Origin: Burkholderiales bacterium
GTDB lineage: Bacteria; Pseudomonadota; Gammaproteobacteria; Burkholderiales; Burkholderiaceae_C
NCBI GenBank assembly: GCA_025363275.1
Contig: JANYEE010000156.1
Span: forward strand, 5,215 to 69,214
Reading direction: 5' to 3'
Length of the DNA: 64,000 nt
The number at the start of each line of letters is the position of its first letter. Position 1 is the stretch's first letter. The position numbers and the translations under genes are program-made. Below the pieces are notes generated by a model that ran no database searches, was not told where the DNA came from, and was given only the letters and a program-made list of their open reading frames with translations. This document shows positions 12,665 through 16,467 of the stretch, one piece after another.

Positions 12665-13810
12665 ATGCTGACACCACCGCCCAGCCTGATTGACCTGATG
12701 CGCAGCAGCCCGCGGCGCGCGCCGGTGACGTTGGTGTTTCTGACGGCCAACGTCGCGGTGTTTTTGTTGATGCTGCTGTTTGGCGCGGGCTGGTGGCACA
12801 CCCCCAACGGCGTGCAATTGGCCTGGGGCGCTAATTTCGGGCCCGCCACACAAGACGGCCAGTGGTGGCGGCTGTTCACGGCCCTGTTTATCCACTTTGG
12901 CGTGATCCACCTGGGCCTCAATATGTGGGCGCTGTGGGATGTGGGCCGATTGGTAGAGCAACTCTACGGCCGCTGGCGCTTTGCGCTGCTGTACCTGGGC
13001 AGTGGCGTGGTGGGCAATCTGGTGTCGTTGGTGATGCAGGGCAACCAGGCAGTATCAGGCGGTGCATCGGGCGCAGTGTTTAGCCTGTATGGCGCGCTGC
13101 TGGTGTTCTTATGGCGCGAGCGGCGGCAGGTCGACCGGGGCGAATTCCGTTGGCTCTTTGGCGGCGCAGTGGCATTTAGCACCCTGATGCTAGTGCTGGG
13201 CCACGTGGTGCAGGGCATCGACAACTCTGCGCACGCTGGCGGTCTGGTGGCCGGCATGCTGCTGGGTGCGCTGCTGGCATGGCCCTGGACACCGCGCAGC
13301 CCCCCTGTGCTGCGGGCCAACATCGCGGGGCTGTTGCTGTTGCTCATAGCCCTGGCTGTATTGATTACACGCTTGCCAGCACCCACGTACCTGCTCGGCG
13401 ACGAGCTGCGGGCGCGTGCTGCCATTGAAGCATTCCTGGTGCAGGATCAAGGCGCCAGCCGGGTACTGGACAAACTATTGCAGCAAAGCGCCAATGACCC
13501 ACAAACCTTCAATACCCTGGCAGGCCACATTGAAACCGATGTGAGCGCGGTGTACGCCAAGAGCTTTGAGCAACTGCTACGAACCACGCCGGGCAGCGCG
13601 GCACCGTCTGCCGCCACCCTGCAAACCCTGCGCGATTACGCCGACCTGCGGGCCGAGGCCACGCGGGAACTGGCCCACAGCATTCGCGCCGGCAATGTGG
13701 CCCAAGCCAGAGCGGCGCTACAAAAAACTCGGCAGGCGCCAGCACGCGCAGCGTCGGCTGCTGCAGCGTCTACATCTGCGTCAAGGTCAGTGGCTAAGCC
13801 AGCGCCTTGA
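12665..13810 (+). CDS. Rhomboid-family intramembrane serine protease with a C-terminal soluble extension
   Basis: The catalytic motifs GASGAVF and HAGGLVAG are present, along with multiple transmembrane helices. The C-terminal tail of about 140 aa is Ala-rich. Confidence 0.88.
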   Translation: MLTPPPSLIDLMRSSPRRAPVTLVFLTANVAVFLLMLLFGAGWWHTPNGVQLAWGANFGPATQDGQWWRLFTALFIHFGVIHLGLNMWALWDVGRLVEQLYGRWRFALLYLGSGVVGNLVSLVMQGNQAVSGGASGAVFSLYGALLVFLWRERRQVDRGEFRWLFGGAVAFSTLMLVLGHVVQGIDNSAHAGGLVAGMLLGALLAWPWTPRSPPVLRANIAGLLLLLIALAVLITRLPAPTYLLGDELRARAAIEAFLVQDQGASRVLDKLLQQSANDPQTFNTLAGHIETDVSAVYAKSFEQLLRTTPGSAAPSAATLQTLRDYADLRAEATRELAHSIRAGNVAQARAALQKTRQAPARAASAAAASTSASRSVAKPAP

Positions 13811-14267
13811 ACATATTGATATTGGTGGTCAAAAAGCCCAGCTTGACATAGAGCGCATGGGCCTGCGGGTTGTGCCCGAACACATGCAGCGCCAAGCCCG
13901 AGAGTCCCAGCTCCAACGCCCTCTTCTCCAGCTCCGCAAAGGCCCAGGTGGCATGTCCTTGGCGGCGGTAAGGCTCGTCCACCATCACATCAAAAATATG
14001 GGCCACCTTGCAATCGCCCCGCTGCATCGCGGCGATCCAGATCATGCCCACCACCGCGCGCTGCGGGCCGTGCTCCATCACATACAAATGGTGGTCAGGG
14101 GTAGCTAAGCCCTGGGGCAAACTAGTCTGCATGGATTGGCGCGCCAGCTCCAGCGCTTGCGACTGTGCCCACTGCCCTGAACGCACTTTATCCTGCGCGT
14201 ATTCAGGGATCATGATCTGCAGATAGCGTTGAAACTGCACTTCATTCATCGGCACTAAAGTCTTCAC
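13794..14267 (-). CDS. GNAT-family N-acetyltransferase
   Basis: 157-aa ORF with the acetyl-CoA-binding motif YRRQGHATWAF. Confidence 0.8.
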   Translation of the reverse strand: MKTLVPMNEVQFQRYLQIMIPEYAQDKVRSGQWAQSQALELARQSMQTSLPQGLATPDHHLYVMEHGPQRAVVGMIWIAAMQRGDCKVAHIFDVMVDEPYRRQGHATWAFAELEKRALELGLSGLALHVFGHNPQAHALYVKLGFLTTNINMFKALA

Positions 14268-14289: not shown

Positions 14290-15441
14290 TTACTTTAGCT
14301 TGCGTCGCGCCTTCACGGCCTCAGACAGCACGTCAAGTGACTCCAGCGACTGGCCCCAGCCCAGGCAGGCATCGGTGATGCTCTTGCCGTACTCCAGCGC
14401 GTGGGCATCGTCTTTGCCGGGCGTGAACTTTTGCGCGCCAGCATTCAGGTGACTCTCAATCATCACCCCGAAGACGCTGCGCGACCCACTGGAAATTTGC
14501 GCCGCAATATCGCGGGCTACCTCCACTTGCTTTTCGTGCTGCTTGCTGCTGTTGGCGTGGCTGCAATCCACCATCAGTGCTGGGTTGAGCTTGGCTTTAC
14601 TCAACTCGGCGCAGGCCTCGGCCACGCTCTTGGCGTCAAAGTTGGGTGCTTTACCGCCGCGCAGAATCACATGGCAGTCTCTGTTGCCATTGGTTTGCAC
14701 AATCGCTACCTGGCCGTTTTTGTGTACCGACAAGAAGTGGTGGCCACCCGCAGCCGCTTGAATCGCATCGGTAGCGATCTTGATGTTGCCATCGGTGCCA
14801 TTCTTGAAGCCAATGGGCGCGGACAGGCCGGAGGCCAATTCACGGTGCACCTGGCTCTCGGTGGTACGCGCACCAATCGCGCCCCAGGCAATCAGATCGC
14901 CCAGGTACTGGGGCGAGATCACATCCAAAAACTCGCTGCCTGCGGGCAGGCCCAGGCGGTTGATCTCGATCAGCAACTGGCGCGCAATGCGCAGGCCCTC
15001 ATCAATACGGAAGCTCTCATCCAGGTAGGGGTCGTTGATCAAGCCCTTCCAGCCCACGGTGGTACGGGGTTTTTCAAAATACACACGCATCACAACCTCC
15101 AGCGTATCGGCGTATTTGACGCGCTGCTCTTTCAGGCGGCGGGCGTATTCCACCGCAGCAGCCGGGTCGTGAATCGAGCACGGCCCGATGATGACCAACA
15201 GCCGGTCGTCCTTACCGTGCATGATGTTGTGGATACGTTTGCGGGTATCGGTGATCAGCGCTTCCACAGGCGTCCCCTGGATGGGGAAGAAGCGGATCAA
15301 ATGTTCAGGGGGTGGCAACACGGTGATGTTCTGAATACGTTCGTCGTCGGTCTGGCTGGTACGGTCTGCAGGGCGGGCAGAGTGCGGATACCAGGCGTCC
15401 GTGGAAGACGATGCGGCAGAAGAGGAAGCTTTGGTTGGCAT
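14290..15441 (-). CDS. aroG: 3-deoxy-7-phosphoheptulonate (DAHP) synthase, class I
   Basis: Colinear with E. coli AroG (DDRLLVIIGPCSIHD, VMRVYFEKPRTTVGWKGLINDP, GARTTESQVHRELASGLS, KSITDAC). ATG 15441 has a GGAG Shine-Dalgarno sequence. The isoenzyme specificity cannot be determined from sequence. Confidence 0.95.
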   Translation of the reverse strand: MPTKASSSAASSSTDAWYPHSARPADRTSQTDDERIQNITVLPPPEHLIRFFPIQGTPVEALITDTRKRIHNIMHGKDDRLLVIIGPCSIHDPAAAVEYARRLKEQRVKYADTLEVVMRVYFEKPRTTVGWKGLINDPYLDESFRIDEGLRIARQLLIEINRLGLPAGSEFLDVISPQYLGDLIAWGAIGARTTESQVHRELASGLSAPIGFKNGTDGNIKIATDAIQAAAGGHHFLSVHKNGQVAIVQTNGNRDCHVILRGGKAPNFDAKSVAEACAELSKAKLNPALMVDCSHANSSKQHEKQVEVARDIAAQISSGSRSVFGVMIESHLNAGAQKFTPGKDDAHALEYGKSITDACLGWGQSLESLDVLSEAVKARRKLK

Positions 15442-15492
15442 AACAGGACTCCAGTACAAATGAAACTGATCAATGAAACCGACAAAAAAAAC

Positions 15493-15528
15493 CGCAAAAA
15501 AAAACCGCCGGTGGCTCCGGCGGTTTTT
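15493..15528 (-). terminator. Intrinsic terminator in the aroG 5' leader (attenuator terminator)
   Basis: On the minus strand the sequence is AAAAACCGCCGG-AGCCA-CCGGCGGTTTTTTTTT. The stem is 7 G/C base pairs (15505-15511 with 15517-15523) extended by A-U pairs, followed by a U run. It lies about 50 nt upstream of the aroG ATG. Confidence 0.8.
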
Positions 15529-15560
15529 GGAAGATTCAGGACGTTCTCTTGTGGATACGT

Positions 15561-15629
15561 TCAGATCTCTCTACCGCCTAAAGCGCTTGAGAACCAAAAG
15601 TAACTAAAAAAGAAACGTGCGAAATGCAT
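15561..15629 (-). CDS. Putative aromatic-rich leader peptide (22 aa), MHFARFFFSYFWFSSALGGREI
   Basis: Hand-translated from ATG (15629) to TGA (15561). It has 5 Phe, 1 Tyr and 1 Trp within codons 6-13 and lies 32 nt upstream of the terminator. No strong Shine-Dalgarno sequence is present. The ORF is absent from the track because it is too short. Confidence 0.6.
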   Translation of the reverse strand: MHFARFFFSYFWFSSALGGREI

Positions 15630-15661
15630 AAAGTCACTGTAGCACAGTTGAAAATAGCCCC

Positions 15662-15907
15662 ATGCCCGCTACCGAACTCCTAGTCACCTCAGCAGGTCAA
15701 ATTGCGGACAAAGAATTACTGATCCCCACCGGCAAGGAAGGCGCTTACTTCCCGCATGTCCAGGATTGGGTCACCGCACAACTCAGCGCTAAAAGACCCG
15801 TCAAGGACATCAGCAAACTGGTGCTGGTCAAAGGCATCAAGCAATGGGCAGTTTTTGAGCAAAAGCTCGGCGGCAAGTCGGTGCGCACCGTTTTCAAGAT
15901 CACTTAA
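15662..15907 (+). CDS. Hypothetical small protein (81 aa)
   Basis: I recognise no family for this ORF. GC looks lower than in the neighbouring genes. It converges on the next gene with a 4-nt overlap. Confidence 0.45.
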   Translation: MPATELLVTSAGQIADKELLIPTGKEGAYFPHVQDWVTAQLSAKRPVKDISKLVLVKGIKQWAVFEQKLGGKSVRTVFKIT

Positions 15908-16467
15908 TCGGCCTTACGGATCCAGCCCATCAGGCGCGACCAGGCGCTGGTGTGGATCTCGGTCTCGGCGCTGGCCTTGCTGGATTGCTCGTACACATCC
16001 AACAACAGGGCACCTGCCCCCAGCAGTCGCCAGGCGCTGACATCAAAGTCGGATTGCAGCGGAGCCTGGGCTACCGGCAGGCCCACGAGTTGCGCCCATT
16101 GCGTGAGTTGCGATCGAAACTGGTTCACCGCCGCCATGTGGGCTTTGAATTCCAGAAATCGGTCCCAATCGCGATTCAAGTCCAACACCATGGCGTGGTG
16201 ATCACGTAGGGTATCCAACAAATCCAGAAAATAAGGGGCCAGCCAAGTGGCGTCTTCGTGTGGCAGGCGCCAAGCTTCGGTTAAGGCTTCAATTTGCGCT
16301 GACAAGCTATGCAGGCTTTCCCCCATTTGTAGGGATTCTTCATCCGCTACGGCAGCACGCAAAATCTCGCTGTATTCGCCGTAGCTGCGCACGCTGGATG
16401 GTGGCGCCGACGTATTGCGCGCCGCCGGTGTGGGGATGGGAGACTGCCCTACGTTGGAGTCGGGCAT
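15904..16467 (-). CDS. Hypothetical protein (187 aa) downstream of tldD
   Basis: The ORF starts 10 nt after the tldD stop, so co-transcription is likely. It has a Pro/Ser-rich N-terminus followed by a predicted helical body, and no motif I recognise. Confidence 0.6.
   Translation of the reverse strand: MPDSNVGQSPIPTPAARNTSAPPSSVRSYGEYSEILRAAVADEESLQMGESLHSLSAQIEALTEAWRLPHEDATWLAPYFLDLLDTLRDHHAMVLDLNRDWDRFLEFKAHMAAVNQFRSQLTQWAQLVGLPVAQAPLQSDFDVSAWRLLGAGALLLDVYEQSSKASAETEIHTSAWSRLMGWIRKAD

Follow-up and report, generated by a model that had tools for sequence, protein, structure and literature searches.

How entry into the shikimate pathway is adjusted to the supply of aromatic amino acids is the question raised by the DNA upstream of aroG in the stretch analysed here, 64,000 nucleotides (nt) of contig JANYEE010000156.1 from a Burkholderiales bacterium (assembly GCA_025363275.1), referred to below as the window. 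On the minus strand of the window, aroG, the gene for 3-deoxy-D-arabino-heptulosonate 7-phosphate (DAHP) synthase, is preceded by a short open reading frame (ORF) crowded with phenylalanine, tyrosine and tryptophan codons and then by an intrinsic terminator. The original prediction, made from this one locus, read the arrangement as a ribosome-mediated attenuator. We consider it highly likely that the element is indeed a ribosome-mediated leader-peptide transcription attenuator of aroG, and the codons of the leader make it very probable that the attenuator responds to the charging of the transfer RNAs (tRNAs) for Phe, Tyr and Trp. This reading is supported by the conservation of leader, terminator and antiterminator in the window and 61 further loci, by covariation among the paired strands, and by the geometry of the ribosome footprint; these results are established by the comparisons below, as are the elements themselves and the two mutually exclusive folds of their RNA. 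DAHP synthase lies on the route to each of the three aromatic amino acids, and a leader of mixed Phe, Tyr and Trp codons therefore fits the role of the enzyme. Reading the minus strand of the window over 15300..16100 gives the following features around the element and its gene.

15561..15629, minus strand: leader peptide ORF of 22 codons plus TGA, MHFARFFFSYFWFSSALGGREI (translated ORF), with ATG at 15629..15627 and TGA at 15563..15561.
15591..15614, minus strand: regulatory block of leader codons 6-13 (F F F S Y F W F), at which ribosomes are proposed to stall.
15496..15528, minus strand: intrinsic terminator, AAAAACCGCCGG, loop AGCCA, CCGGCGGUUUUU, then further U's (nine U's in all).
15449..15452, minus strand: Shine-Dalgarno sequence GGAG of aroG, 7 nt 5' of the ATG, read directly.
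14290..15441, minus strand: aroG, class I-alpha DAHP synthase of 383 amino acids, the regulated gene, identified with Pfam and NCBIfam.

In the window, the parts of the attenuator are as originally predicted. The coordinates and translation of the 22-codon ORF agree with the sequence, and seven of the eight codons 6-13 encode an aromatic residue (F, Y or W). The ORF has its own start and stop and lies on the same strand as aroG, 120 nt upstream. The hairpin starts 32 nt past the leader stop; its core of seven G/C base pairs (bp), formed by CCGCCGG (15523..15517) and CCGGCGG (15511..15505) around the loop AGCCA, is lengthened to a 12-bp stem by an A5/U5 extension, and the nine U's lie at 15504..15496. 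RNAfold places this 12-bp hairpin in both the minimum free energy (MFE) and the centroid structures of leaders of 148 nt and 199 nt, with folding z-scores of -2.7 and -2.8, respectively. The downstream gene is a DAHP synthase, as claimed, with matches to Pfam PF00793 (3.5e-95) and NCBIfam TIGR00034 (531 bits); the equivalog model NF006723 scores 539 bits, under its cutoff of 568. A second run of eight U's directly follows the terminator (GCGGUUUUUUUU, 15495..15484, minus strand). A simple promoter and terminator scan listed neither this terminator nor a promoter here. The terminator was presumably missed because greedy stem extension consumes five of the U's and leaves four T's in the 8-base tail window, and the scan accepts a promoter only with a -35 box, dispensable in extended -10 promoters, so that the miss is not counter-evidence.

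The combination of aromatic mini-ORF and terminator proposed from the window is kept in related genomes. A search with the AroG protein gave 80 aroG loci (written L001 and so on), each from a different GTDB species of Burkholderiales, which were scanned for F/Y/W-rich ORFs, defined as having at least 5 aromatic residues in 9. Such an ORF, of 18-30 codons and on the aroG strand, precedes aroG by 100-260 nt in 64 of the 80 loci, compared with a background of 16 equally aromatic ORFs among 3725 other small ORFs (0.4%) on both strands of the same loci. Leaders were found in Comamonadaceae, in Rubrivivax/Roseateles/Aquabacterium-type genera, in Burkholderia, Paraburkholderia and Caballeronia, in Oxalobacteraceae and in Alcaligenaceae; examples are MTSAKSFFAYFWFSSASGGREILA (Polaromonas), MSAARAFYFAYFWFPVSGGREARA (Variovorax), MQVRSAFYFYFWFSVPGG (Comamonas), MSAKFYFYFFWHLRPLADREG (Burkholderia/Paraburkholderia/Caballeronia), MSPRFYAYFFFFSRPAAEGTG (a metagenome-assembled genome, MAG, labelled Bordetella) and MNFARFYFYFHFSYSSPMAVEKR (Oxalobacteraceae). 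A hairpin with the core ACCGCC(G/A)G ... C(C/U)GGCGG and a U tract comes after almost every one of these ORFs.

Alignment A1, made with MAFFT from the window and 61 relatives, comprises 62 sequences and 177 columns. The aligned leaders are 18-30 amino acids long and start with ATG in 61 cases; on average each contains 4.6 F, 1.8 Y and 0.85 W, and all three types of aromatic residue occur in 50 of the 62. Codon choice in the leaders differs from that in aroG, with TTT making up 64% of the Phe codons (17% in aroG) and TAT 41% of the Tyr codons (23% in aroG). Enrichment of rare codons is typical of leader peptides and supports sensing through decoding speed. The other two reading frames are open over the leader span in 38-39 of the 62 sequences, the span being too short for this count to inform.

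A covariance model built from A1 (model R1) has a single strong match in the whole window, at 15497..15632 on the minus strand with 100 bits. The model also detects the element in L023 and L044, both outside the alignment, and adds two loci truncated 5' by a contig end (L018 and L073) to the 64 of the ORF scan. The aroG loci of Polynucleobacter (L034, L035, L037), Cupriavidus necator (L039), Rhodocyclaceae (L054, L059, L065), Methylotenera (L071) and Ferrovum (L074), as well as L047, L072 and L077, lack both an aromatic leader ORF and an R1 match. The distribution of the element in Burkholderiales and their neighbours is patchy, and the lineages that do not carry it must control aroG otherwise. 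Some leaders are variants of the common type: in L022, L023 and L032 (Aquabacterium/Comamonadaceae MAGs) His occurs among the aromatic codons (MSTVRFYFWHFHLPPH..., MRTTVRYHFWHFHIQH...) and GGCGC stands in place of the leader motif GGCGG described below, and L076 and L079 have aromatic leaders with another terminator sequence (R1 at 14 bits or none).

The terminator is one of two alternative structures available to this RNA, which in the window involve the following segments.

15565..15578, minus strand: region 2, the antiterminator 5' strand, consisting of GGCGGU (15578..15573) and GAGAGAU (15571..15565), within leader codons 18-22.
15517..15535, minus strand: region 3, consisting of AAUCUUC (15535..15529), an A tract and the terminator 5' arm CCGCCGG (15523..15517).
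15535..15623, minus strand: P1, the anti-antiterminator of untranslated RNA, a long imperfect hairpin that is the MFE structure without a ribosome.

Region 3 pairs alternatively with region 2, giving the antiterminator, or with region 4, giving the terminator. The terminator core CCGCC/GGCGG is invariant in all 62 sequences, 94% of the alignment cells of the stem are paired, with no slid control coming close, and the pair 147:163 changes from G-C to A-U in 20 sequences. The RNAalifold consensus contains the terminator as its sole helix, and the alternative helices were tested explicitly. Within the leader ORF, 62 of 62 sequences carry a GGCGG-like pentamer (GG[C/U]G[G/C]), with the alignment positions G55 and G58 invariant. 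As the antiterminator CCGGCGG:CCGCCGG, this segment is paired with the terminator 5' arm in 87.6% of cells, and 23 sequences have C-G at the pair 61:147 where 16 have U-A. Changes in the three strands go together, with CCGGCGG/CCGCCGG/CCGGCGG in 21 sequences and CUGGCGG/CCGCCAG/CUGGCGG in 12.

Folding of the window RNA finds both of the mutually exclusive structures, and the pairing originally proposed, GGCGGU (15578..15573) with ACCGCC (15524..15519), forms once the 5' part of the RNA is masked; it is also conserved and covarying. The 6-bp helix therefore stands, but the antiterminator is larger than was claimed, as the folds of individual sequences include a second, inner helix of GAGAGG with CCUC(C), which in the window is GAGAGAU with AAUCUUC. 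In a column-wise test the inner helix GAGG:CCUC reaches only 66% pairing because MAFFT shifts the variable spacer. Frame 0 reads the leader GGCGG as G-G in 32 leaders, and frame 2 reads it as A-A or L-A-D in 29, so that the equivalent nucleotides encode GGRE, TAAGEA or PLADREG. The use of different frames in different genomes indicates a constraint on the RNA and not on the peptide.

P1 includes the pairing of UCUC (15592..15589) with GAGA (15571..15568), while GGCG is held in its apical stem. UCUC lies directly 3' of the last aromatic codon, and GAGA belongs to region 2. Across the 62 sequences UCUC:GAGA is paired in 92.7% of cells, with double changes in all 4 of its 4 pairs, a result reached by 0 of 500 shuffles.

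The effect of a ribosome on these alternatives was modelled by masking the span from -15 to +12 relative to the A-site codon's first base and folding the nascent RNA as it is before the terminator 3' arm is made. In the window, the RNA without a ribosome forms P1 and no antiterminator, and the full RNA folds as P1 plus terminator at -41.4 kcal/mol. With the A site at any of codons 1-13, the MFE structure contains 6 of 6 GGCGGU:ACCGCC pairs, falling to 5 of 6 at codon 14 and to 0 of 6 from codon 15 to the stop. The switch point is thus the end of the aromatic block. Among the 62 sequences, a mask that ends 12 nt beyond the last aromatic codon leaves the antiterminator in 55 MFE folds; the antiterminator is allowed at 390 of 437 aromatic A-site positions and, at the last aromatic codon, in 53 sequences. 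In this folding model, the half of the mechanism that leads from stalling to read-through is general across the family. The other half, anti-antiterminator and masking at the stop, is clean in leaders of the window type and weaker elsewhere. The original claim that a stalled ribosome frees the pairing is borne out by the folds; that a ribosome at the stop codon masks it agrees with the folds of the window and not with those of much of the family. Across the 62 sequences, the stop-codon footprint blocks the core helix in only 28.

The start of transcription, the translation of the ORF, the stalling and the premature termination in vivo would, as we infer, be linked as follows. Transcription would begin with the A of the leader AUG or a base adjoining it, presumably from an extended -10 promoter, and a ribosome would translate the 22-codon leader as RNA polymerase advances. 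When aromatic aminoacyl-tRNAs are plentiful, the ribosome would pass through codons 14-22 to UGA and cover region 2 (GGCGGU..GAGAGAU) during the synthesis of regions 3 and 4, the 12-bp hairpin with its nine U's would form, and transcription would end about 55 nt before aroG. When any of the aromatic aminoacyl-tRNAs is scarce, the ribosome would stall within codons 6-13, covering region 1 (UCUC and upstream) and leaving region 2 free; GGCGGU:ACCGCC and GAGAGAU:AAUCUUC could then pair before the 3' arm is made, no terminator would form, and transcription would read through into aroG. If the leader is not translated at all, region 2 would be locked in P1 and the terminator would form.

Several observations weigh against this reading or against parts of it. 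Most of the antiterminator and terminator pairs are invariant, so that the covariation comes from few positions, and the aligned sequences are phylogenetically related. P1 is weak, with only the 4-bp UCUC:GAGA core conserved, and the upstream half of the RNA folds no better than shuffles (z = 0.38); for 35 of the 62, the MFE structure of the nascent RNA contains the antiterminator even without translation. The low count for the static footprint at the stop codon reflects 34 of the 62 in which that codon lies at least 16 nt past GGCGG, leaving the core helix unmasked. Termination in these cases would have to result from the timed passage of the ribosome through region 2, or from steric effects. 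The full-length MFE structure always contains the terminator (about -20 kcal/mol, compared with -16 for the antiterminator in the window), and truncated transcripts folded without masking form the antiterminator in only 28 of 62 cases, in a model that ignores the ribosome. Since the full-length RNA prefers the terminator, read-through must be kinetic, as is usual in the classical trp, his and phe attenuators. Finally, no Shine-Dalgarno sequence precedes the leader ATG in any clade, and translation of the leader would therefore rely on a leaderless start or on other initiation independent of a Shine-Dalgarno sequence.

The missing Shine-Dalgarno sequence was one of two caveats of the original prediction, the other being that no promoter could be placed. 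The first caveat holds, whereas a promoter is now predicted from a conserved element, which plausibly resolves both.

15636..15644, minus strand: predicted extended -10 element TGc-TACAGT, ending 6 nt before the leader ATG, with a predicted transcription start at about 15629.

Upstream of Comamonadaceae-type leaders there is a conserved block, (c)TGTGCTACA(T/G)T, that reads as an extended -10 element (TG-n-TAnnnT). TGnTAnnnT occurs in the window and in 36 loci, 37 sequences in all, with its end 6-9 nt 5' of the leader ATG, mostly 7-8 nt, compared with a background density of the motif of 2.3e-4 per nt, and the base at -1 of the ATG is a pyrimidine in 34 of the 37. The usual spacing between the -10 box and the start site is 7 +/- 1 nt, and start sites favour a pyrimidine at -1 and a purine at +1. 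Both the spacing and the bases therefore point to a transcription start on the A of the AUG or no more than 1-2 nt away from it. This geometry suggests that leaders of Comamonadaceae-type loci are translated from leaderless messenger RNA (mRNA), and a leaderless start would explain the absence of a Shine-Dalgarno sequence. Leaders of Burkholderia sensu lato (L050-L053, L056-L058, L060, L066, L068) and of Oxalobacteraceae (L061, L062, L064, L067, L069, L080) instead have a TTG(C/T)CA-17-TATAAA/TATAGT promoter about 35 nt upstream, which gives a 5' untranslated region of about 30 nt, likewise with no recognisable Shine-Dalgarno sequence. Initiation on the leader thus seems to be independent of a Shine-Dalgarno sequence across the whole family and not just in the loci that look leaderless.

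Could the same conserved unit serve another function? It resembles a small RNA (sRNA) gene in being a short unit that runs from promoter to terminator, and its terminator yields weak sub-threshold matches (BSnc120, 23.9 bits; sroD, 19.9 bits); the terminated transcript of about 130 nt might then be a trans-acting or dual-function sRNA whose adjacency to aroG is incidental or secondary. We regard this as very improbable, because the unit always lies directly 5' of aroG and in the same orientation, in 60-plus genomes whose neighbouring genes are otherwise different. Moreover, the simple promoter scan lists no promoter-like site between terminator and aroG, and conservation concerns the codons, the reading frame and the alternatives of the terminator, not a seed-like single-stranded segment.

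It is also hard to believe that the product of the ORF is a ligand-sensing arrest peptide, responding to free aromatic amino acids as TnaC-like peptides do, or a hydrophobic micropeptide. The aromatic core of the peptide, (F/Y)F x (Y/F) F W F S, is conserved, but the order and number of F, Y and W vary freely, and the C-terminal GGRE, which appears conserved at first sight, is conserved at the nucleotide level: GGCGG and GAGAG are kept while frame and amino acids differ by clade. The rare codons TTT and TAT indicate that decoding speed matters, and sensing of free amino acids would have the wrong sign, inducing biosynthesis when its products are abundant.

A further alternative would make the ORF irrelevant and ascribe control to a protein or a ligand-binding RNA, for example a TyrR/PhhR-like protein at the TGTGCTACAGT box, a TRAP-like protein or a riboswitch. 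The conserved letters of the box 5' of the ATG could belong to an operator, yet they are those of the extended -10 element (TG-n-TA---T), set at a constant 6-9 nt before an ATG that has a pyrimidine at -1; no conserved, structured aptamer-like domain appears beyond the terminator and its alternatives, and no Rfam model matches at its gathering score anywhere in the window. We think this explanation most unlikely. The palindrome CTGT-GCT-ACAG, which lies within the box in the window and was considered as a candidate operator, is not conserved (relatives have cGTGCTACATT). We give least credence of all to the idea that the hairpin does no more than end an upstream transcription unit, or terminates in both directions, beside a mini-ORF arising by chance in a T-rich spacer: the hairpin is symmetrical and a homologue of the 187-residue gene of the window lies upstream on the same strand in L001, L002 and four other relatives, but the window leader adjoins a divergent plus-strand ORF and no minus-strand gene ends near the hairpin, which therefore terminates none, a promoter element lies between the upstream gene and the ORF, the start (61 of 62 ATG), stop, length and aromatic block are kept while nucleotides and residue order vary, and the third copy of the arm, inside the ORF, covaries with the terminator although a plain terminator has no need of it.

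Some further observations concern the surroundings of the attenuator. With A5 before and U9 after the stem-loop, the terminator also scores as a hairpin with a U-tract on the plus strand, where the BSnc120 match and reverse matches of model R1 are found; it could work bidirectionally, against antisense transcription leaving aroG. The nearest upstream gene is an ORF of 81 codons at 15662..15907 (plus strand), divergent from the leader, with a gene-like codon-position GC content of 0.57/0.38/0.63; it has no Pfam or NCBIfam match and no homologue in the 80 related aroG loci. The start of this ORF is 32 nt from the leader ATG, which forces the two promoters to overlap. The 187-residue gene (15904..16467 in the window, minus strand) has a homologue in the closest relative (L001) whose end lies about 25 nt short of the leader, and the window seems to carry an insertion of about 270 bp upstream of the leader. 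On the other side, a GNAT acetyltransferase gene (13794..14267, minus strand; PF00583, 1.2e-16) starts 22 nt past the aroG stop on the same strand and may be co-transcribed with aroG, and hence be under the same attenuator. AroG itself begins with a Ser/Ala-rich N-terminal extension of about 30 residues (residues 1-30, 15352..15441, minus strand; MPTKASSSAASSSTDAWYPHSARPADRTSQ...). Matches to the NCBIfam and Pfam models do not begin before residue 28-32, and the extension is partly common to Comamonadaceae relatives, with matches from residues 1-10.

DAHP synthase sets the flow of carbon into the shikimate pathway, and its control in enterobacteria by TyrR and TrpR is textbook knowledge, while to our knowledge its transcriptional control is essentially undescribed for Burkholderiales. 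The attenuator, if it works as proposed, would explain how aroG is matched to the supply of three amino acids in Comamonadaceae, Burkholderia, Oxalobacteraceae and Bordetella-type bacteria. These results lead us to speculate, tentatively and with some inclination to doubt, that in Comamonadaceae-type genomes, that of the window included, the leader is translated from a truly leaderless mRNA, with the transcription start on the A of its AUG, and that the element provides the main transcriptional control of shikimate entry in much of the Burkholderiales, acting as a single multivalent sensor of the charging of tRNA-Phe, tRNA-Tyr and tRNA-Trp in place of TyrR and TrpR. Leaderless mRNAs are considered rare in Proteobacteria; if the leaderless reading is true, the element would be a widespread leaderless ribosome-mediated attenuator in this phylum and a natural system for studying the coupling of leaderless translation to transcription. 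In practical terms, the element would be a new cis-regulatory RNA family for genome annotation. For strain engineering, if the mechanism is right, hosts from Burkholderia, Paraburkholderia, Acidovorax and Variovorax should be de-attenuated in their aromatic production once the leader or the terminator is removed. The mechanism is classical and the conceptual surprise moderate, but the gene and the bacterial order are ones for which the literature searched holds no earlier description; the newest part is the leaderless aspect, suggested by promoter geometry.

With respect to known families, a scan of both strands of the 64-kb window with Rfam 15 gave no family at its gathering score. The sub-threshold matches (BSnc120, Leu_leader, sroD, Phe_leader) are driven by the terminator; Leu_leader (RF00512) scores 21.1 bits against a gathering score of 50, and Phe_leader (RF01859) scores 18.6 bits against 55 (E = 1.5), covering essentially the terminator region only. 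Five leader peptides had no NCBIfam match at E up to 1, and 10 exact leader peptide sequences were absent from a collection of about 15 billion predicted proteins. The abstract of Vitreschak et al. 2004 (FEMS Microbiol Lett 234:357) reportedly treats branched-chain, His, Thr, Trp and Phe operons and not DAHP synthase. The literature search returned no description of an aroG leader from Burkholderiales, Bordetella or betaproteobacteria, an earlier prediction in Vitreschak 2004 or RegPrecise being possible, and no such leader appears in Weinberg 2017, Naville & Gautheret 2010, Leyn 2016, Seliverstov 2005 or the supplement of Brewer 2021. The proteobacterial regulon survey of Leyn 2016 (PMC5343134) has DAHP synthase genes only as TyrR/TrpR targets, in Gammaproteobacteria.

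The original prediction had noted that control of DAHP synthase is usually described as based on repressors or on allostery; there are two leader-peptide precedents, one established upstream of aroF in Corynebacterium glutamicum (PMC11802643) and one predicted upstream of aroF in Acholeplasma (PMC8632094). The aroR-aroF attenuator of C. glutamicum is established (Neshat 2014, via PMC11802643). According to PMC11802643, aroR is likewise an aromatic leader (Phe-Tyr-Phe) 5' of a DAHP synthase operon, and stalling under Phe limitation enhances read-through; compared by this description, it differs in being actinobacterial, in its much shorter motif, in containing no Trp and in reportedly not responding to Tyr. 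The two elements are likely to be of independent origin. The uORFC-13-1 motif 5' of aroF in Acholeplasma, predicted by comparative genomics (Brewer 2021, PMC8632094), likewise has a predicted upstream ORF with Phe codons followed by an intrinsic terminator in front of a DAHP synthase gene. It differs, again by description, in being restricted to Acholeplasma (Mollicutes; 24 representatives), in having a recognisable ribosome-binding site, and in requiring at least one Phe codon where the Burkholderiales leader has a mixed F/Y/W block; a sequence relationship is not expected. Neither the aroR nor the uORFC-13-1 motif was matched as an Rfam model in the scans of the window. The Burkholderiales element is a new family of a known kind, the leader-peptide attenuator, set apart from aroR and uORFC-13-1 as far as the published descriptions of these two go.

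Leaderless leader-peptide attenuators, responsive to cysteine among others, occur in Actinobacteria, where the mRNA begins at the start codon of the leader. They belong to another phylum and to other amino acids than the Burkholderiales element, whose leaderless start is one that we infer. The closest parallels in mechanism are the pheL-pheA attenuator of E. coli and the classical trpL, hisL, leuL, thrL and ilvL attenuators, which likewise consist of a short ORF with cognate codons, rare ones included, and an intrinsic terminator before the structural gene, follow the same four-region logic, and form the antiterminator from a copy of the terminator 3' arm just 3' of the regulatory codons. The Burkholderiales element has no sequence or structure homology to these systems, has no Shine-Dalgarno sequence and probably a leaderless start, and is found in Burkholderiales, not Enterobacterales. 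Its target is the DAHP synthase of the common pathway and not a gene of a terminal branch, and it combines Phe, Tyr and Trp codons, a multivalent design as in the thr and ilv attenuators.

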